Source: Candidatus Obscuribacteraceae bacterium
GTDB taxonomy: Bacteria; Cyanobacteriota; Vampirovibrionia; Obscuribacterales; Obscuribacteraceae
Reading direction: 5' to 3'
DNA length: 64,000 bases
Assembly (NCBI GenBank): GCA_044378815.1
Contig: JBIPOV010000007.1
Coordinates: 31,259 to 95,258, forward strand
In this document: piece after piece, positions 19,215 through 26,898 of the stretch
Position numbering within the stretch: position 1 is the stretch's first letter
How the letters are laid out: each line of letters begins with the position of its first letter
Position numbers and translations under genes: made by a program
The notes under the pieces: generated by a model
Told to the model about the DNA's origin: nothing
The model's input: the letters and a program-made list of their open reading frames with translations, nothing else
The model's database searches: none

Positions 19215-19484
19215 GTTCTCGTCTCCTTCTGCGCCGCAGTCGCTTGTCATATCAAGATTTCTGGCTCAATATGGTACAGCATCTCTCGATCTGGTTGCCA
19301 CCACGGAGATGTCAATAAACTCAAGTGCCATGAAGGTCTCTAATTTTGTCGTTGGCATAGCTCAAATGTAGAGATTAGACCTCGTGATGCCCTGTACCAG
19401 TAATGCGTAGAGTTCAGTTATTACTATGGCGGTTAGTAGGTGGCGCTAAAAATAGAGATTGATAGAAAAAATACTCCTCCGAAA

Positions 19485-19517
19485 GAGCAGAGAGATTTTG
19501 TCAGAATCTCTCTGCTC
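19485..19517 (-). terminator. Hairpin with a 13-bp perfect stem and 7-nt loop; likely the terminator of the five-gene operon.
   Basis: gagcagagagatt / ttgtcag / aatctctctgctc. On the minus strand it is followed by tttcggaggagtattttttc. It lies about 60 nt downstream of the stop at 19577. Confidence 0.6.
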
Positions 19518-19576
19518 TTGTTGGGGTAAGTTTGAGTGTTACTGCGCTTTTCGCACAGTCTTGGCCTAGATGCGGC

Positions 19577-20281
19577 TTAGATGTCCTTGGCCTTGCTCTC
19601 CATCGAGAAGAGGTCCTTTCCGCTGGGTGAGGGCGGCAGTTGCTGACGGCTGACTAGCTTGAAGGTTTTGCCGTCGAAGTCATAGGTATTGATAGAGGCC
19701 GATGGCACCCCTTCTTTGCCCAGCTGCTCAAGATCTTCGCCAGCCCATTGCCATTGGCTTACGCTGACGACAGTTTCGTGAGTGCTGATCAAGACCACCG
19801 CTGATGGTGGCAGGCCGTTGATGCGTTCTTTCTGGAAGTCGAGAAAACGCGCAGCGACATCGTGCCAATTTTCGCCTCCTTCGGGGCGATAGTGCACCTT
19901 GCCGACTGTGCGCCGCTCTTGCCATTGGGTCGGGAACTTCGCCGCGCGACCCTTTTTGGTGAGGTCGACGAAAATGCCAAAGTCGATTTCGCGCAGGCGC
20001 TCATCCAGCACCAGCTCTACTTTCGTCGGCAGCTTGCTCAGGGCGAAGGCGCCGGTTTGAGTGGTGCGCTTGAAGGGCGAACTGAAGCCATGGGTCGGTC
20101 TTTCGCTCTCGGGCAGTGAGGCGAAGAAGAGTGCGAGTGCTTCTCCCTGCTCGTCGCCGAGTTGAGAGAGTGGCACCGCTGAGTCGGGCAGAAGCTCGGG
20201 CGGAACAACCTCGGCAGCCGGGTTGCTCATTCGCCAGCGCATGGCAGCGCTTTCACAGTGTCTTAGAACATATATTCGCAT
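19577..20281 (-). CDS. Histidine phosphatase superfamily (phosphoglycerate-mutase-like) protein.
   Basis: The start is set at MRIYVLRHCES (CAT 20279-20281), which places the RH(G/C)E catalytic motif at the N-terminus. A later STHE motif (VVLISTHETVV) is also present. It overlaps the upstream GT gene by 29 nt. Confidence 0.75.
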   Translation of the reverse strand: MRIYVLRHCESAAMRWRMSNPAAEVVPPELLPDSAVPLSQLGDEQGEALALFFASLPESERPTHGFSSPFKRTTQTGAFALSKLPTKVELVLDERLREIDFGIFVDLTKKGRAAKFPTQWQERRTVGKVHYRPEGGENWHDVAARFLDFQKERINGLPPSAVVLISTHETVVSVSQWQWAGEDLEQLGKEGVPSASINTYDFDGKTFKLVSRQQLPPSPSGKDLFSMESKAKDI

Positions 20282-21521
20282 GGGTGCTCCATTGTATCGT
20301 GTTGGTTTGAGCGCTGGCGTTGCTTTTCGACAAGGCTGCTCGAATGTAGGCGAGAATCTTCTTCTCACCAGACCCGGGCACCAGAATTCTTTTGCTGTTC
20401 TTGCCTTTCTTGTCGTTGATAATGTTGGCAGCGAAGCTCTCGAGTTGAGAAAGGAATGTCGCTAGTTGCGGCTGGTTGATGTTTTCAGCGCAGACGCCGA
20501 AGTTGTTGTCGCCGACGGCATGAGCGTTGATCTGTTGCTCGTAGACAGCCAGCGGAATCAGGTAGGCCGGAATGCCCAGGTACATTGCCTCCGAAACCAG
20601 GGTGTGGCCACCGGTGGTGACAATGCCCTGGCATTCGGCTAGCACATCGAGGAAGCGCGGATCGCCGTGGCGACGCAGGGTGACGTTGCTGGGCAGCACA
20701 GCCAACAGCTGCTGCGGCAGTTCTTTGACGAAGACGTGGAAGTGATACTCGGGGGCTGAGGACAGCACATTGAGCACCTCTTCGTAGCTTTGTACAAAGT
20801 CTCTTTGCGACGAGATGTAGACCAGAATTGATCTGGAACTGGTTCCGATTCCGTTTCCGGTTGCAGATTTCGCTTTGTCCTGCTGGGCCTGGCGGCGCCG
20901 CTGCTTCATCGCCACGATGGCTGGCTTGATGATGGGCGGGCAGATGATCACCTTTTCGCTGGCAGCACTTTTGCCAAAAGCGCGCCGTGGCACGGTGAAG
21001 AACGAGCAGGCCAGCCGCATTACTGCTGCTGGAAAGAAGAGCCGGAGCCGAGCTACTTCATCGAGGCAGGTCTGGCCAGCGATGGCTTGGCTGTAATCAC
21101 CGACCAGATATTTGCTCTGCTGGTCGATTGTCACCAGCGGCGTGCCGCTGGCATAGGCGTACTGAGCGCTGACAGGCTCGTAGTCTGAGATCACCAGGTC
21201 GGGTTTGCCGATCAGCTTTTGCGTCAATTCCATGGCCGCCAGGTTGATGGCCTCATGGTCAATGCCGCTTGCTGCGATGCGTCTGGCTGTTTCGGCGAAG
21301 TCGAGGCCTTGGGCGTTGCCGACATAGAACGGCACCGAGACAGTCAACACCGTGACATTTTCGCTGTGGCGGAAATGCTCTTCGTAGAAACTTTTGCTTT
21401 CGCCATAGACGAAGAGCACGATGCGATTGTCTTTCGCCAGTTCGTCGAGCAGTGGTAGCTGGCGGTAGGTGTGACCCATGCCGATGCCACACACTCCATA
21501 GAGTATCTTTTTGCTTTTCAT
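20253..21521 (-). CDS. GT-B-fold glycosyltransferase (MurG/UGT/MJ1255-like).
   Basis: The N-terminus is KILYGVCGIGMGHTYRQLPLLDEL. The C-terminal region is TTGGHTLVSEAMYLGIPAYLIPLAVYEQQINA, typical of the GT28-like donor-binding half. An ATGA overlap (4 nt) joins it to the upstream kinase gene. Confidence 0.75.
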   Translation of the reverse strand: MKSKKILYGVCGIGMGHTYRQLPLLDELAKDNRIVLFVYGESKSFYEEHFRHSENVTVLTVSVPFYVGNAQGLDFAETARRIAASGIDHEAINLAAMELTQKLIGKPDLVISDYEPVSAQYAYASGTPLVTIDQQSKYLVGDYSQAIAGQTCLDEVARLRLFFPAAVMRLACSFFTVPRRAFGKSAASEKVIICPPIIKPAIVAMKQRRRQAQQDKAKSATGNGIGTSSRSILVYISSQRDFVQSYEEVLNVLSSAPEYHFHVFVKELPQQLLAVLPSNVTLRRHGDPRFLDVLAECQGIVTTGGHTLVSEAMYLGIPAYLIPLAVYEQQINAHAVGDNNFGVCAENINQPQLATFLSQLESFAANIINDKKGKNSKRILVPGSGEKKILAYIRAALSKSNASAQTNTIQWSTHANICSKTL

Positions 21522-22477
21522 AAATCCTCCAGTGTGTGGTTGATGAAGGGTAGTGAGCCTTCCAGCTCCCAGACCGGTAACTTCGTCAGCGCTTGGGAGA
21601 GCTCGCTCGCCAGTCGCTTGTTGACGCCGCTGGGCGGGCTGCCAGCAAAGACAAGACGGCCGCCAGCCAAGACGATGTCAGCATTGACGGCATCGAGGAA
21701 GAAGGGATAGAGCTTATGCAGAGCCGAGAGAGCGCTGAGTTGCCGCGATTTTTCTGCGCCGTCGTTGAGACGCGGCAAGCTGATCAGGGTCACTGCCTGT
21801 GGTGCCGGGTCGGCATAGAAGCGCTTGCTCAGGCTAAAAGCTGAACGCCCTTCGTAGCCAACTTCCTCGTTTTCCAGCGCCTCCGGCAGGTGTCTGGCCA
21901 GGTCTTCTGCCCTGGTGGTGATGGTGCGGGTGCCGGCGATTGCCGTGATAATTGCAGGGTCTTCTTTGCTTGAACCAGGTGTGATTTTCACCAGGGTGCG
22001 GTTGCCAGAGAAGACTTTGTAGCCGCGTGCCAGAGCGCTCAGCGTCACTGCTGTTTTGCCCACACCGGAATGGCCGACGATCAAGCTCAATTGCTTTTGC
22101 TGATTCTCCAGGCAGGCAGCATGGACGCAGTAGAGACCAAGCTTCAGCCACTTCTGCCGGACAATGCCGTAGGTGAGGAAGATCAGGTCCATCAGCGCGG
22201 CTTCGGTACTCGGCGTGAAGAAGTTATAGCTCTTGCCGTTCTTGCTGAGCGACAATCTCGGCTTGCTTGATTGCCGCAGGGCGATTGTGATCAGGCCTTT
22301 GCCGCTTTTCGCACTGTTTGCTCTTTTCTCGCTGAGATCAGCTAGCTCGACGCCTGGCAGATAGGCCCCTAAGAGCAGACACGCTGACGGGTCATCGAAG
22401 AGCGGCTGGGGCAGGTCGAGCAAAACTTGCAGTGCACCAGGCAGCCGCAAGAGATACTGATGTTTGGCGCTAGACAT
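21518..22477 (-). CDS. HPr-kinase/phosphorylase C-terminal-domain-like P-loop kinase.
   Basis: The start is set at MSSAKHQYL (CAT 22475-22477), preceded by a perfect aaggagg RBS. The P-loop region GHSGVGKTAVTLSALARGYKVFSGNRTLV aligns to the HprK pattern GxSGxGKS..L.L..RG..L..DD. An 8-nt overlap joins it to the upstream gene. Confidence 0.7.
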   Translation of the reverse strand: MSSAKHQYLLRLPGALQVLLDLPQPLFDDPSACLLLGAYLPGVELADLSEKRANSAKSGKGLITIALRQSSKPRLSLSKNGKSYNFFTPSTEAALMDLIFLTYGIVRQKWLKLGLYCVHAACLENQQKQLSLIVGHSGVGKTAVTLSALARGYKVFSGNRTLVKITPGSSKEDPAIITAIAGTRTITTRAEDLARHLPEALENEEVGYEGRSAFSLSKRFYADPAPQAVTLISLPRLNDGAEKSRQLSALSALHKLYPFFLDAVNADIVLAGGRLVFAGSPPSGVNKRLASELSQALTKLPVWELEGSLPFINHTLEDL

Positions 22478-23660
22478 TTTGTACCTCCTTTCGGCTTGCT
22501 TGGTTCTTGGCTTGAGTATTGGCTGGAGCGCAGCTTTGTCGTTGGCTTTGCTGATAGACCAGTTCAGCGACATGCTGCGCCCCACCTGAGCCGAACCGCT
22601 CTACGAGAGCCGTTAGGCGGCTGTTTTGCGGCAAGGCTTTGATTTGCTGGTGCAGCAATTTGGCCAAGCGGGTCTTTGCTTTCTTCGAGCTTTGCCCCTG
22701 GTTTAGGGCGGCGGCAATGCTTTTGAGAACAGCACCTTGGTCGGCGCTGTAGTCGATGGCGCTGATTGGCAGAATCTGGTGCCAGTCGACAAGGCCGTCC
22801 ACCAGGCTGCTCTGGTTCAAAAGCGCTAGCTGCTGACCTTGGCTGTCGTTGGCCGGTGGCAACCAGATGGTTGGGGTGTCGAAGCGAGCAGCGTCGTAGA
22901 TATTGCCCAGACCCGGCGTCATCAGAGCATATTTTGCTTGTTGCAGAACAACTTGCATTTGCTCGCGGCTGAGATTCTTGGCGCCGAGGTGAGCCAGAGC
23001 CGCCGAGATAGCGGAGTTGGCCGCGACCACGACCTTTTGACCGGCCAGGGTGGGCAGCACTGCTTCGAGAATTTGGCGGGCATAAGACAGCGCCTCATTG
23101 CCGGTCCACAACGGGTTGCTCAGGCCGCCGAGGTTGACTAGAATCAGGTCTTTGGCGCTTTCAGCCTTGCCGCCGGGCTCATTGTCTGACTGCTGGCCGA
23201 CGATTGGCGCTATGGTTTGGCAGTTGGCAGCGGCGAATTCAGCCGATTTCAGCCGTTCTTCCACTCCGAAGAAGTTCTGGGCGATGTACAAGTCGACGTC
23301 CCGAACCACGCCTGGAATGGTCTTCCAGTACCAGGTGAGCGGGTCGTAGATGCAGACAGTCAGGCCCTGCCCAAGTGCCTTTTCGGCCATGGCAAAGTCG
23401 AGGGCGGTGAGGAAGATGTCGTACTGAGCGAAGATTTCGTTCAGTGCCGCTTCTTCGAGCTGACTGGCGTCATGAATGGCATCGTAGGCAAGCGGCCTCT
23501 GCAAATCGAGAGTGTGTCCGGTGCCAACGAACCCAATGGTGCTGAAGTGCTTCCTCAGAAAAGGGAAGCAGTCAGCAATAGCAGCGGTTGGTCCGAAGCC
23601 AAAAGCCTCGGCGTTGAGCAACAGCCGCGGCTTTGTCTGTTCAGTATTTTTCCTGGCCAT
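22470..23660 (-). CDS. Second GT-B-like (MurG/UGT-like) protein; putative glycosyltransferase.
   Basis: The 396-aa ORF has an N-terminal LLLNAEAFGFGPTAAIADCFPFL and a C-terminal MTPGLGNIYDAARFDTPTIWLPPANDSQGQQLALL resembling the GT28-type C-terminal half. A 20-nt overlap joins it to the upstream PhyH gene. Confidence 0.5.
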   Translation of the reverse strand: MARKNTEQTKPRLLLNAEAFGFGPTAAIADCFPFLRKHFSTIGFVGTGHTLDLQRPLAYDAIHDASQLEEAALNEIFAQYDIFLTALDFAMAEKALGQGLTVCIYDPLTWYWKTIPGVVRDVDLYIAQNFFGVEERLKSAEFAAANCQTIAPIVGQQSDNEPGGKAESAKDLILVNLGGLSNPLWTGNEALSYARQILEAVLPTLAGQKVVVAANSAISAALAHLGAKNLSREQMQVVLQQAKYALMTPGLGNIYDAARFDTPTIWLPPANDSQGQQLALLNQSSLVDGLVDWHQILPISAIDYSADQGAVLKSIAAALNQGQSSKKAKTRLAKLLHQQIKALPQNSRLTALVERFGSGGAQHVAELVYQQSQRQSCAPANTQAKNQASRKEVQNV

Positions 23661-24789
23661 AGATTAACCTTCCGAGTTTAGTTAGTTTTTCTGACCGGCG
23701 CAGGGCTGCTAACCGATTCTGGTTGGTGAAACGCGGACGCTTGCTGGCGTGCATCAAGGCGTCGCGAACATTGCTGCCCAAGCCGCTCTCAAAGGCGTCC
23801 TGCCGGGCCTGGCAAGCGCTCTCATCGCTCTGCCTTTGCGGGCCGAAGGCAATGTATGCGACTGTGCGCGTCTCTTCTGATACGTTGCTGCTGTTGGCGT
23901 GCGTGGTGCGGCTGTCCCAAGAAATCAAATGACCAGCGCGCAGCGGGCAGAGTTGAGCGCTAGCAGTGAACTTGGCAGCGATGTCGTGGCCGAGGTCAAG
24001 CTCCACGTACTCACCCTGGTTTTTTGCCATGGAGCCGTAGACCGAGAAGCTGTCGCGGGAGCCGGGTACTCCGACGAAAGTGCCGCGCTCTGCTGGGCAG
24101 TCGGCTAGCGCTAGGACACCCTGCACAGTGCGGAAGTCGGGGTGCACATTGGGATTTTGGTCCACGTGCAAGGGCAGGGCTTTGCCATCGGCAAGACCTG
24201 GAAGCTTGATGCCAAGACGGTCGAAGGTCGTCCACAGGTCAGCCCGGCCCCAGATCAGAACGTAGTGCAGGTAGACGCGCACGCTCTGGCGGATGGCGGC
24301 GAGGGTCTGGTCATGGTAGATTTCGAAAAATCCACGAGAGATGATTGGAACACCGGCTTGATCGACTGGAACGTTGTTCCAGGTTGAAGGCTTGCTCAGG
24401 TCGCAGGTGCCTTCGCTGAGAGCTAGCAGAAGCTCATGCATGCGCGCCACGACTTCTTGGCATTGGCTTTGGCTGACGACGTTGGCGCCAACGACAATGC
24501 CATACCGATTCCACGAATCAATGAACGCTTTCTCTTGGGTGAGAGGGTCGAAGCCGATGACATAACCGTCCTGGTCGAGGGGAAGACGTGGGGCTGCGGC
24601 GGGCTTTGCGGTCTTGGCTAACTGGCGGCCATACTGGGCGTAGCGAGCGACCACTTTGGGATGGGCGCAACGCTTCTGCAGTTTGGCAATGAGGCGGGTC
24701 AGAAGCAGATCGAGCGGTTCTTCGCCTTTGTCGATGCGCTGAACCAGGTTGCGTATTGATTGGTTAATGATCCACATGTTTTTTCTCAC
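23641..24789 (-). CDS. PhyH-family Fe(II)/2-oxoglutarate dioxygenase.
   Basis: It contains LPLHVDQNPNVHPDF (HxD), ...SWDSRTTHANSSN (distal His) and an N-terminal GYVIGFDPLTQE.... The track start is a GTG at 24789; an alternative ATG is at 24777. Confidence 0.75.
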   Translation of the reverse strand: MRKNMWIINQSIRNLVQRIDKGEEPLDLLLTRLIAKLQKRCAHPKVVARYAQYGRQLAKTAKPAAAPRLPLDQDGYVIGFDPLTQEKAFIDSWNRYGIVVGANVVSQSQCQEVVARMHELLLALSEGTCDLSKPSTWNNVPVDQAGVPIISRGFFEIYHDQTLAAIRQSVRVYLHYVLIWGRADLWTTFDRLGIKLPGLADGKALPLHVDQNPNVHPDFRTVQGVLALADCPAERGTFVGVPGSRDSFSVYGSMAKNQGEYVELDLGHDIAAKFTASAQLCPLRAGHLISWDSRTTHANSSNVSEETRTVAYIAFGPQRQSDESACQARQDAFESGLGSNVRDALMHASKRPRFTNQNRLAALRRSEKLTKLGRLIYGQEKY

Positions 24790-24801
24790 AGAGTTGTCGA
24801 C

Positions 24802-24817
24802 CGATGGAGCTCCATCG
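24802..24817. promoter_or_regulatory. Perfect 16-bp palindrome immediately upstream of the PhyH start codon.
   Basis: The sequence cgatggagctccatcg lies 13-28 nt upstream of the GTG at 24789. It could be an operator or a 5'-UTR hairpin. Confidence 0.3.
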
Positions 24818-25273
24818 ACCTTTGGTTAGGTGCAAGCTGTTGAGTGGCAGCTGGTAGACGTTGCCCTTTAGGCGTTCAGTGGCCGTGAAGATTGAGAGAG
24901 AGCATCTCTTCTCGTGGTTCTTGCAAGGGCCGTTGTGGTGCTGGGCGTAGCGGTAAGTAAATCTCAGAAAATTGAAAGGTGATGTACTTAAACTACTTGG
25001 CTCTTTGACATCAATACAAGATCTGAGTAGTAAAGAGTTGCAAAGAGTTGAGGCCGATATTATGGAGAGTTTAGACGCGGGGCCTTAGTAGAGAAGCTAG
25101 CGCAGTTTCACGTGGGCTGGTTTAGGTGGTATAACTGGCAAGTTGCAACTATAATATGTAATAAATAGGCGAAAAAAGAAAGCAAAGTGAGAGCCGTGGC
25201 TCCTACTCTGCTTTCCCAAAAGAGAAGTTCTCTTTTTAGTGCCTCGACAGCTGCTTAGAGCTTCGAGATTTTT

Positions 25274-26827
25274 TTACAGCTTCGAGTACTGGCGCAGCAA
25301 CTGGCCCAGGGTGCGAACAGCCACACCGGTAGCACCAGCCGCATCGACACCATGGTCGTAGCGACGGAAGCTCGTGCCAGCCACGTCCATGTGCACCCAG
25401 ACCGTGCCATCCTTGATGAACTCGCGAAGGAACCAACCAGCCGAGATAGCACCAGGGCCGGTACCGCTGTTGTTGAGGTCAGCCATGACGCCCTTGTTGC
25501 AGTCCCTGTACTCATCGAAGAGCGGCAGTTCGTGCATCGGTTCGCCGGCTTCCTTCGAGCACTTCAGCACTTCGCGAGTAAAGCGCTCGCTATTGCCCAT
25601 CACGCCCGAAATCTTGTCACCAAGCGCCGTTTCGACATCACCGGTAAGGGTGGCCACGTCGATTACCTGGTTGGCACCGCTGACGGTCTGGATGTAGTGC
25701 AGAGCATCAGCCAGCGTCAGGCGGCCTTCGGCATCGGTGTGTCCGATTTCGACAGTCAGACCGGCCATGGTCTTGAGGATGTCGCCCTGGCGCATGGCCT
25801 TGGCGTCGATCAGGTTTTCGCTGGCGGCAATCACTGCCCGCACCGAAATCTGCGGCTTCAGCACCGAGAGAATCGACATCACCTGCAACACAGCGGCGGC
25901 ACCGCCCATATCGTTCTTCATGTCGAGCATGCCGTCATAGTCTTTGGCATTGAGGCCACCGGTATCGAAGGTGATGCCTTTGCCAACCAGACCAATCACC
26001 TGCTGAGTCACACCGACTTCGGGGTCATAGCTCATGGTGATGAAGGCCGGAGGATTCTGCGAGCCCTGATTGACAGCCAGCAGGCCGCCCATCTTGAGCT
26101 TCTTGATGCCGGCCAGGTCGAGCACTTCGCACTTCACCAGACCGCCCGAGTTCTCGGCCACAGCGCGAGCCATGGTAGCGATCTTCTTGGGCGTCATGAT
26201 GTTCGAAGGCTCGTTCACCATGTTGCGGGCGCGATTGGTGGCGTCACCAAGCAGACGACCCATGAGGATGCCCTTCTTGGCCGCAGTGAGAGTGCCGGCG
26301 GTGCAGAGCATCGTCAGTGACTTCAGGTGCGTACGCGGGGCTTCGTTCTGCCACTCCCGCGTCTTGCGGTGGTTGGGCTCGTAGTCGGCCAGAACGGAAT
26401 ACTCCGTCACGACCTGGGCGAACTGCTCGACGGTGAACCCTTGCAGGTCAACGTCAATCAGCGGGAAGATCAGGCGCTCGGAACCGGCCACGTCGCGAGC
26501 GGTGGTGAACGCTTCAGCCAGAGCTGCGCGCAGACCGTTGAGGGTGAGCTTGGAGCGTGCGCCCAGGCTGACCAGGATGACTTTGTCCAGACCCTTGGTG
26601 GTGAGATCGGTATCGATCACCTTGGTCTGGATGAACTTGGCTTGAAAGCCGTCCTGCTTGATACGACGCTTGATCAGACCATTGGTCAGATCGTCAGCGG
26701 CGAGAGCCTGGCCGGAAAGCTTTTCACCAGAGAATACAACGAGAAGGAGGTTGGCGCGTTCTCCAGCTTTGACCCGCGTAATTGCCGAGTCAAGACGGCT
26801 GGATGTTGCCGAAATGATGAGAGACAT
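25274..26827 (-). CDS. pepA: Leucyl aminopeptidase, M17 family.
   Basis: The ATG at 26825-26827 is preceded by gaggaaaataaac. It has VGKGITFDTGG and the family signature GHTDAEGRLTLADAL. Confidence 0.9.
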   Translation of the reverse strand: MSLIISATSSRLDSAITRVKAGERANLLLVVFSGEKLSGQALAADDLTNGLIKRRIKQDGFQAKFIQTKVIDTDLTTKGLDKVILVSLGARSKLTLNGLRAALAEAFTTARDVAGSERLIFPLIDVDLQGFTVEQFAQVVTEYSVLADYEPNHRKTREWQNEAPRTHLKSLTMLCTAGTLTAAKKGILMGRLLGDATNRARNMVNEPSNIMTPKKIATMARAVAENSGGLVKCEVLDLAGIKKLKMGGLLAVNQGSQNPPAFITMSYDPEVGVTQQVIGLVGKGITFDTGGLNAKDYDGMLDMKNDMGGAAAVLQVMSILSVLKPQISVRAVIAASENLIDAKAMRQGDILKTMAGLTVEIGHTDAEGRLTLADALHYIQTVSGANQVIDVATLTGDVETALGDKISGVMGNSERFTREVLKCSKEAGEPMHELPLFDEYRDCNKGVMADLNNSGTGPGAISAGWFLREFIKDGTVWVHMDVAGTSFRRYDHGVDAAGATGVAVRTLGQLLRQYSKL

Positions 26828-26898
26828 GTTTATTTTCCTCAAGCGCTAGGCTTATGGGCTCTGCGCATGTTTGAGTTTGTTGGTGAGTGAAACCTGCA

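Follow-up and report, generated by a model that had tools for sequence, protein, structure and literature searches.

Within the 64,000-nucleotide stretch of contig JBIPOV010000007.1 from a Candidatus Obscuribacteraceae bacterium, a non-photosynthetic relative of cyanobacteria (hereafter the window), the minus strand carries at positions 19577-24789 five open reading frames (ORFs), g1 to g5, that form one operon. The first four encode a dioxygenase of the PhyH family, a glycosyltransferase (GT) of the GT-B fold, a P-loop enzyme of the phosphoenolpyruvate carboxykinase (PEPCK)/HPr-kinase (HPrK) fold and a GT of the GT1 type, and they constitute a conserved unit which, judged by its genomic contexts, is an autonomous and horizontally mobile cassette. 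An initial annotation made from the letters alone had described a unit of five genes; the conserved unit comprises four, as the histidine phosphatase g5 has been found in 3 of 42 locus groups only. As its function we tentatively favor the ordered hydroxylation, glycosylation, phosphorylation and second glycosylation of a small, probably nucleotide-, nucleoside- or nucleobase-derived molecule. The cassette is built from known enzyme superfamilies and would represent a glycoside- or nucleoside-type tailoring pathway with an unusual distribution. Pfam, NCBIfam, the PDB and PADLOC have yielded no description of it, nor has the literature that could be searched, and the searches have matched no characterized pathway, in line with the initial annotation, which could not assign one either.

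Scans of genomes and metagenomes, the genome scan with an alignment of 13 g3 sequences, have yielded 61 further loci, to which contig look-ups have added 8, and at 85% g2 identity the loci fall into 42 groups. The gene order g1-g2-g3-g4 recurs in these 42 dereplicated loci, which represent six or more phylum-level lineages; as the neighboring genes of one group bear no relation to those of another, the cassette is regarded as autonomous and mobile. Counting only groups with a long enough contig, g1 adjoins g2 in 28 of 33, and g3 and g4 stand together in 29 of 32. The co-conservation that had been proposed as a check on the operon is thus present for the four-gene core, in adjacency as well as in gene fusions, but not for g5. 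The carriers include Obscuribacterales, a ‘Planktothrix’ metagenome-assembled genome (MAG), Micavibrio and other Alphaproteobacteria, Chlamydiae, Kistimonas and an archaeal MAG, together with Saccharibacteria, Peregrinibacteria, Moranbacteria, Collierbacteria and Uhrbacteria; most are host-dependent, epibiotic or predatory, namely the bacteria of the Candidate Phyla Radiation (CPR), Chlamydiae, Kistimonas and the Micavibrio-like bacteria. All proteins that searches with g2 and g3 have brought up are unnamed and come from metagenomes and MAGs. At the nucleotide level the window shows 92-97% identity to the 6.7-Mb Candidatus Obscuribacterales chromosome OZ245871.1 (locus L007), with which it has the flanking genes in common, pepA upstream and a DUF1254/DUF1214 gene downstream. 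When the proteins of 19577-26842 are compared with those of L007, the cassette is 93-98% identical, with g3 lowest at 93%, the upstream pepA 99%, and the downstream DUF1254/DUF1214 gene 97%, inside the range of the cassette.

Mapping by BLAST of long homologues has revealed at least nine fusion architectures. The pair g3-g4 is fused in P0185, P0189, P0223, P0263, P0284, P0290, P0291, P0300, P0312 and P0317, g2-g3 in P0110 and P0245, and g2-g3-g4 in P0191, P0253, P0264, P0296 and P0301; the permuted form g3-g4-g2 is represented by P0323, and a further form, g3-g4-X-g2 (P0192, Kistimonas), contains an additional domain designated X. Chlamydiae possess an X-g2 fusion, L044 fuses an NTPase_I-T domain to g1, and a NUDIX domain precedes g3 (P0271, archaeal MAG). 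All four enzymes are finally united in operon order, g1-g2-g3-g4, in the 1412-aa protein P0326. Because of these repeated fusions, the all-in-one P0326 included, the four enzymes are expected to act on one substrate; the fused sequences are strong evidence for a shared substrate, and the enzymes probably work as a complex.

Within the operon, the dioxygenase gene g1 (23641-24789) has been called from a GTG, yet since its homologues begin with MWII... the true start is probably the ATG at 24777 instead of the GTG at 24789. It is followed on the same strand by g2 (22470-23660, ATG start), g3 (21518-22477, counted from ATG), g4 (20253-21521, ATG start), a UDP-glycosyltransferase (UGT) resembling MJ1255/VC2487, and g5 (19577-20281, counted from ATG), a branch 1 histidine phosphatase. 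Recomputed from the sequence with the ATG starts, the stop/start overlaps amount to 20 nt (g1/g2), 8 nt (g2/g3), 4 nt (g3/g4, ATGA) and 29 nt (g4/g5), exactly as first annotated. The ribosome-binding site AAGGAGG that had been ascribed to the kinase gene has likewise been located, at 22484-22490 within g2 and 6 nt ahead of the g3 ATG, and g2, g4 and g5 are preceded by the motifs GGAAGG, GGAGG and GGAG, each inside the preceding gene. Because these motifs are embedded in upstream genes, g1 to g5 are probably translationally coupled. A hairpin at 19483-19519 (minus strand), the probable terminator, closes the operon. It had been described as a 13-bp stem at 19485-19517; the hairpin itself is real, but the stem is longer and consists of 15 pairs. 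The folding energy of the 61-nt stretch is -26.9 kcal/mol (z = -5.9 against shuffles), a T-run is not directly adjoining, and the hairpin sequence is kept in L007 and L008. The G+C content of the operon is 57%, compared with a window average of about 50% (2-kb bins, 44-59%).

Regarding the individual enzymes, g1 scores 41.1 bits against PF05721 (cut-off 22), with residues 93-309 spanning the whole profile. The iron triad, H208-V-D210 and H297, and the 2-oxoglutarate (2OG)-binding R308 are at least 95% conserved among 36 homologues. Because the HxD...H triad and R308 are kept to this degree, g1 is, on its motifs, a hydroxylase-type Fe(II)/2OG enzyme and not a halogenase. Six Arg residues of g1 are also at least 95% conserved in these homologues, which is compatible with an anionic substrate. 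The protein passes the PhyH family threshold and possesses the facial triad and the 2OG-binding Arg, but differs from the family in a specific N-terminal extension of ~90 aa, which is swapped for a signal peptide in Chlamydiae and for the NTPase_I-T domain in L044. A PDB sequence search with g1 has given no match.

The one curated family to which g2 is related is that of cytosylglucuronate (CGA) synthase, an enzyme that joins free cytosine to UDP-glucuronate (PMC3715490). Against Pfam, g2 has no hit, and a PDB sequence search with it has found no match either. The NCBIfam model of CGA synthase, TIGR04467, is nevertheless matched end to end (residues 20-368 against model positions 5-378 of 382) with 81.9 bits, below the cut-off of 300, and all 24 diverse g2 homologues tried match this model as well (best E 4.8e-23), two of the 24 also matching TIGR04469 (CGA synthase-related protein) and none any other NCBIfam family. 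On this basis g2 appears distantly related to the CGA synthase family without being a member. It has in common with BlsD and MilC, the CGA synthases of blasticidin S and mildiomycin, the size, the GT-B fold and the end-to-end alignment, whereas its score, 82 bits where the model requires 300, the lack of an accompanying CMP hydrolase, radical-SAM decarboxylase or peptidyl-tailoring gene, and the carriers (CPR, Chlamydiae and Melainabacteria instead of Streptomyces) set it apart. The AlphaFold model of g2 (pLDDT 90.2) adopts the GT-B fold, and a structure search has returned 285 PDB matches at E<=1e-3; the 50 listed are all GT-B enzymes, mostly small-molecule GT1 members, with BshA, PimB' and HMW1C as further neighbors among the matches listed. 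Altogether 331 homologues of g2 have been retrieved, none of them named, with 43-57% identity across phyla, and a scan of the 2.9 million viral contigs of IMG/VR has found no relative. In two groups (L061 1619-2725 and L066 92-1208) g2 is present in two fragments and lacks an adjoining g3 or g4, and the cassette may be in decay there.

The central enzyme g3 (319 aa) contains the Walker A motif GHSGVGKT, invariant as GHSGxGKT among its homologues. Its matches in Pfam and NCBIfam are weak, to P-loop families and HprK_rel_B, and the window protein hits neither PF07475 (Hpr_kinase_C) nor PF01293 (PEPCK_ATP). Among 27 homologues, 9 match PF07475 weakly and below threshold (best 7.7e-6), and 3 match PF01293 weakly, while a profile match to the HPrK chains 1jb1/2qmh in the PDB has reached E 9e-4. 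The predicted structure (pLDDT 93) finds its best PDB matches in ATP-PEPCK over nearly the whole length of g3 (E 6e-10), with TM-scores of ~0.52-0.59, or ~0.35 when normalized to the target. By profile and predicted fold, g3 is thus placed in the PEPCK/HPrK superfamily and in neither family. The first designation as HPr-kinase-like is consequently valid at the superfamily level, but not for the HPr kinase family, as there is no PF07475 hit and the best structural matches are full-length ATP-PEPCKs. With HPrK, the kinases of ribosomally synthesized and post-translationally modified peptides (RiPPs) and PEPCK, g3 has in common the Walker A motif preceded by a conserved His and a weak profile similarity to PF07475, TIGR04355 and PF01293. 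In contrast to PEPCK (~530 aa) it is short; it differs from HPrK and RiPP kinases in remaining below the family thresholds and in lacking an HPr, lasso or RiPP context, and from HPrK in particular by SGN(K/R)T or SGDKT in place of the ADD/GDDE motif. We presume that g3 is an ATP-utilizing enzyme, namely a kinase. An exhaustive profile search among 1.84 billion representatives has found ~200 clusters (50% identity) at E<=1e-30, by which measure the family is small and discrete.

Glyco_trans_1_3 (PF13528) is passed by g4 with 125.7 bits (cut-off 25), so that both GT-B assignments of the initial annotation hold, that of g2 by predicted structure and that of g4 by family threshold; the cut-off of TIGR00661 (195.9) is not reached with 107.7 bits. 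The best PDB sequence match of g4 is the UDP-glucosyltransferase YjiC, its neighbors are mostly GT1 natural-product or small-molecule UGTs, and a weak MurG/GT28 similarity has also been seen. The conserved motifs include an N-terminal G-x-G-H17 with the GT1 catalytic His and a C-terminal donor motif, GGH..SEA...P...P...EQ..NA. In its catalytic His, its nucleotide-sugar motif and its PF13528 match g4 resembles the GT1 UGTs (YjiC, OleD/MGT, CalG, Gtf) and the MJ1255/VC2487 family, from which it differs in falling under the TIGR00661 cut-off and in being always paired with, and often fused to, g3. The phosphatase call for g5, like the PhyH call for g1, is borne out by its family threshold (PF00300, His_Phos_1; 93 bits, cut-off 21.7) and by the motifs RHCE near the N-terminus and THE further on; no NCBIfam equivalog threshold (CobC, PspA, GpmB) has been reached, and a PDB sequence search has given no match. 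With its occurrence in the window/L007, L008 and L005 groups, g5 is, on this distribution, a lineage-specific accessory gene of the operon.

The position of g5 next to the core appears to be an accessory slot that, as the compared loci indicate, is filled by phosphohydrolases of different folds, g5 here and NUDIX or NTPase_I-T proteins elsewhere, and the families that occupy it are mostly ones that act on nucleotides. Among 109 flanking proteins NTPase_I-T has been the only recurrent Pfam family; four groups have it directly beside the cassette, two of them as a tandem pair and one (L044) as a fusion with g1. A NUDIX gene separates g4 from g5 in L005/L006 and stands ahead of g1 in L004; the archaeal MAG has the domain joined to g3. 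The cassette of L052 (Chlamydiae) has a PNP_UDP_1 nucleoside phosphorylase gene ahead of it and a sulfotransferase gene behind it. When the flanks are clustered by BLAST, only a pair of genes for a TPR-like protein (331-353 aa) and a cytidine deaminase (130-136 aa) recurs, 1.5-6 kb from the cassette in three Obscuribacterales groups (L001 1760-3231, L004 13624-14995, L011 6295-7700). An extended Obscuribacterales cluster (L005 4385-14562, L006 696-10791) has the order nitroreductase-like gene, adenylating-enzyme-like gene (SSGSTGKPT motif, no Pfam hit), small ORF (136-151 aa), g1-g4, NUDIX, g5 and SDR, and may make a more elaborate product. The archaeal variant (L068 8001-11511; L069, HOW29803.1) consists of NUDIX-g3, g4 and then a UDPGT/EryCIII-type GT instead of g2; it has no PhyH gene, and a HIT-family gene (weak hit) and a methyltransferase gene are divergently transcribed. 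Of the deaminase, NUDIX, NTPase, adenylating-enzyme-like, nitroreductase-like and SDR genes found at other loci, none has a homologue in the window, and the window lacks the pair of TPR-like and deaminase genes.

Taking these features together, we propose that g1 to g4 would act in turn on a single substrate, in an order read from the gene and fusion order. A hydroxyl group would be added by g1 and a first sugar attached by g2; g3 would then phosphorylate the intermediate with ATP, and g4, as a GT1-type enzyme with the usual catalytic His, would add a second sugar. Where g5 comes in, it would remove a phosphomonoester, either during precursor preparation or at product release. The product would be a hydroxylated diglycoside that is transiently or permanently phosphorylated. 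The sequence of hydroxylation, phosphorylation, two glycosylations and dephosphorylation envisaged at the outset is not borne out as such; gene and fusion order suggest hydroxylase, GT, kinase and GT instead. While the operon structure, enzyme folds, catalytic motifs, co-conservation, fusions and accessory nucleotide hydrolases are observations, it is the step order, the kinase activity of g3, the sugar donors and the nature of the acceptor molecule that we infer. A nucleotide-type substrate is the best guess because of the relationship of g2 to CGA synthase, the GT1-like character of the GTs and the six conserved Arg residues of g1. The balance leans towards a small molecule, as the structural neighbors of g2 and the sequence neighbors of g4 are mostly GT1 small-molecule UGTs, and as g3 in its predicted structure resembles as a whole PEPCK, a small-molecule enzyme, more than the catalytic domain of HPrK alone. 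It leans further towards nucleotides by the kinship with TIGR04467 and by the NTPase_I-T, NUDIX, nucleoside phosphorylase, weak HIT and cytidine deaminase neighbors. By analogy, the scheme resembles glycoside pathways with phosphorylated intermediates (GpgS/GpgP) and the PolQ2/PolJ-type cryptic phosphorylation of nucleoside antibiotics, in which a kinase and/or a phosphatase brackets glycosyl transfer; it differs from them in that no homology has been detected with Pfam or NCBIfam and in that the phosphatase is dispensable in most cassette lineages.

Several observations weigh against this proposal, the support for which comes from sequence and predicted structure. The score of g2 is far under the TIGR04467 cut-off, and the partners of CGA synthase (the CMP hydrolase BlsM/MilB and the radical-SAM enzyme BlsE) are absent among the Pfam-scanned neighbors and from the window flanks. 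Nucleotide-related neighbors occur in about a dozen of the 42 groups, most loci having none, and the adjacency of the cytidine deaminase could be inherited synteny. HMW1C, which appears among the structural neighbors of g2, is a protein N-glycosyltransferase. The position of the HPrK ‘DD’ motif is Asn in the clade of the window and Asp in others, which makes the classical catalytic base of g3 uncertain. Finally, in three Chlamydiae MAG loci (L045, L050 and L052; PIS03209-PIS03211, NGX58144-NGX58145), in which the cassette is rearranged to g1, g3-g4 and X-g2, all three polypeptides start with a Sec-type signal peptide, as judged by eye from a positive n-region, 12-15 hydrophobic residues and a small-x-small site. 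These signals would accord with a target on the host side or at the surface no less well than with the synthesis of a metabolite in the cytoplasm.

Such signals are also present on the fusions P0264, P0296 and P0223, and P0290 begins with a two-helix hydrophobic segment; neither the window proteins nor most of the homologues possess a signal peptide. As the exported chlamydial enzymes would need ATP, UDP-sugar, 2OG and O2, they would work in a host-derived compartment. The X domain (~280 aa), fused ahead of g2 in Chlamydiae and Kistimonas (L050 5695-7680; L052 9110-11140; L051 6833-11164, residues about 745-1056), has no match in Pfam, in a PDB profile search or in a homologue search; from its motifs EYKFLIP, RRGxVIQQYL and ExRL a CYTH-like triphosphatase is suspected, unconfirmed by the searches, and the domain possibly fills the accessory slot as well. 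Carried further, the proposed nucleotide-type pathway might be a mobile, self-sufficient one of symbiotic, epibiotic and predatory microbes (CPR bacteria, an archaeal MAG, Chlamydiae, Endozoicomonadaceae, Micavibrio-like bacteria and Melainabacteria) that makes a new nucleobase- or nucleotide-derived diglycoside phosphate and that is exported in Chlamydiae to the inclusion or the host. We consider this extension unlikely as it stands; if it were true, the product would be an interaction metabolite of a new kind, or would serve to manipulate host nucleotides, and would not be a housekeeping compound.

The same export signals argue for a different kind of target, namely a protein or glycan of the host, the prey or the cell surface that would be hydroxylated, glycosylated, phosphorylated and glycosylated again by enzymes delivered outside the cell, comparable to the Hyl-Gal-Glc units of collagen, the hydroxyproline glycosylation of Skp1 and the POMK-type phosphorylation of glycans. 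Besides the signals on all three chlamydial polypeptides and on the fusions, and the hydrophobic N-terminal region of P0290, the mostly host-dependent, epibiotic or predatory carriers, the protein- and peptide-phosphorylating relatives of g3 around HPrK, the fold neighbor HMW1C of g2, and the leucine-rich repeat (LRR), ankyrin and annexin-like genes close to the cassette in Obscuribacterales would suit it. We nevertheless judge a macromolecular target to be rather unlikely, given that signal peptides are missing from the window proteins and most homologues, that no candidate target gene is conserved beside the cassette, and that both GTs resemble GT1 small-molecule enzymes. The NUDIX and NTPase_I-T fusions are hard to explain with a protein target, and Chlamydiae export whole sugar-metabolizing pathways to the inclusion, so that export need not imply a protein as substrate. 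Slightly less likely is a small glycoside or compatible solute not derived from a nucleotide, formed through a phosphorylated intermediate in the manner of glucosyl-3-phosphoglycerate synthase/phosphatase (GpgS/GpgP) or sucrose phosphate; the kinase would supply the phospho-acceptor, and the phosphatase would complete the product. The combination of kinase, GT and histidine phosphatase in one operon, the GT1-like nature of both GTs, and a self-contained cassette with variable flanks, as expected if only common metabolites are used, are in agreement with such a route. The phosphatase is, however, missing from 39 of 42 groups, no GT81/GpgS, SPS or OtsA-type family is matched in Pfam or NCBIfam, and secretion of the whole pathway in Chlamydiae is ill-suited to an osmolyte. 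The hydroxylase, the CGA-synthase kinship and the nucleotide-hydrolase fusions would be left unexplained, and the compatible solute suggested in the initial annotation is disfavored because the kinship of g2 and the nucleotide-hydrolase accessory genes suggest a chemistry of nucleotides or nucleosides.

An envelope glycolipid or glycan modification following the logic of lipid A and lipopolysaccharide (LPS) core synthesis (LpxB, LpxK, WaaA; WaaP), with a PhyH-type acyl hydroxylase, seems improbable to us. The succession of GT-B, P-loop kinase and GT-B would fit it, the founding member of PhyH hydroxylates an acyl-CoA, g4 has its weak MurG/GT28 similarity, and a fatty-acid desaturase adjoins the cassette in L016; yet CPR bacteria and the archaeal MAG belong to groups without LPS, the window proteins have no membrane segments, lipid-carrier or envelope genes do not recur in the flanks, and no homology to LpxB, LpxK or WaaA has been detected with Pfam or NCBIfam. 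We regard as very improbable a RiPP or peptide tailoring set in which the HPrK-like kinase would act on a ribosomal peptide encoded elsewhere, as in phosphorylated lasso peptides, and the GTs and the hydroxylase would modify it further. It could draw on the weak HprK_rel_A/B matches, on the PF07475 matches in 9 of 27 g3 homologues and on the nitroreductase-like and adenylating-enzyme-like genes ahead of the cassette in L005/L006, but the fold of g3 matches a whole PEPCK, the cassette is present in minimal CPR genomes, and in none of the 42 locus groups has a cyclase, a leader peptidase, a PqqD/RRE or a conserved short ORF appeared. The earlier observation that lasso cyclase, leader peptidase and precursor ORF are absent here therefore extends to the related loci. 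Least to be expected, and barely credible, is the hypermodification of a base within DNA or RNA by hydroxylation and subsequent phosphorylation or glycosylation of the polymer, as in phage 5-hmU/5-hmC systems or base J. Such a role would account for the nucleotide-related accessory genes, and GT-B enzyme, dioxygenase and P-loop kinase together resemble phage hypermodification toolkits. Against it stand the lack of any g2 relative in the viral contigs, the viral fold matches of g3 in BFVD, which are giant-virus PEPCKs only, the PhyH-type instead of TET/JBP-type g1, the absence of DNA-binding domains and of any PADLOC defense-family hit among the five proteins, and the Sec export of components in Chlamydiae.

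The interest of the cassette lies partly in its carriers. It has spread by horizontal transfer mostly among uncultured host-dependent lineages, including minimal genomes with little non-essential metabolism, and in the sources searched neither the g2 nor the g3 family has its own Pfam entry, a solved structure or a name. A defined product would give a function to several hundred ‘hypothetical proteins’ and might uncover a natural product of the nucleoside type that is new, or a new chemistry of host interaction in Chlamydiae and CPR bacteria. Single-chain forms that occur in nature, the four-domain protein of 1412 aa among them, could serve directly as constructs for expression and metabolomics.

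Upstream of g1, the region 24790-25110 (minus strand) is conserved and represents a putative control region and leader; its 320 nt include blocks for which the window and L007/L008 agree at 93-100% identity (counterparts at L007 7362-7689 and L008 7365-7692), the coding genes being ~80% identical to those of L008. At the core of this region a tandem 10-nt direct repeat, AACTCTTTGC AACTCTTTAC, occupies 25030-25049 (as one stretch, AACTCTTTGCAACTCTTTAC), and the same 20-mer heads the longer cluster, before the nitroreductase-like gene, at L005 4148-4167 and L006 393-412. The 16-bp palindrome that had been noted ahead of the first gene, CGATGGAGCTCCATCG, is an inverted repeat at 24802-24817, just ahead of the g1 start, and its arms are kept among the relatives while its center is variable. 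In L009/L024 two histidine kinases stand ahead of g1. We suggest that the tandem repeat probably serves a response regulator as operator, with a structured leader of ~200 nt behind it. A scan for sigma-70 promoters has found none, and an Rfam scan of 19000-25600 has given sub-threshold microRNA/snoRNA noise on the terminator hairpin only and no match for the leader. An antisense ORF of 38 codons (24972-25088) has not been counted as a gene, as it overlaps the repeat and its shared ‘SKELQRV’ is the translated repeat.

Further afield, an LRR protein is encoded at 8548-9552 (plus strand) of the window, a few kb from the operon, and an ORF of 2407 aa at 9631-16854 (plus strand), which has a borderline annexin-repeat match only; in L005 an ankyrin-repeat protein is encoded close to the cassette (1365-2990). 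The annexin-like, LRR and ankyrin domains of these proteins hint at a host-interacting lifestyle of these Obscuribacterales.

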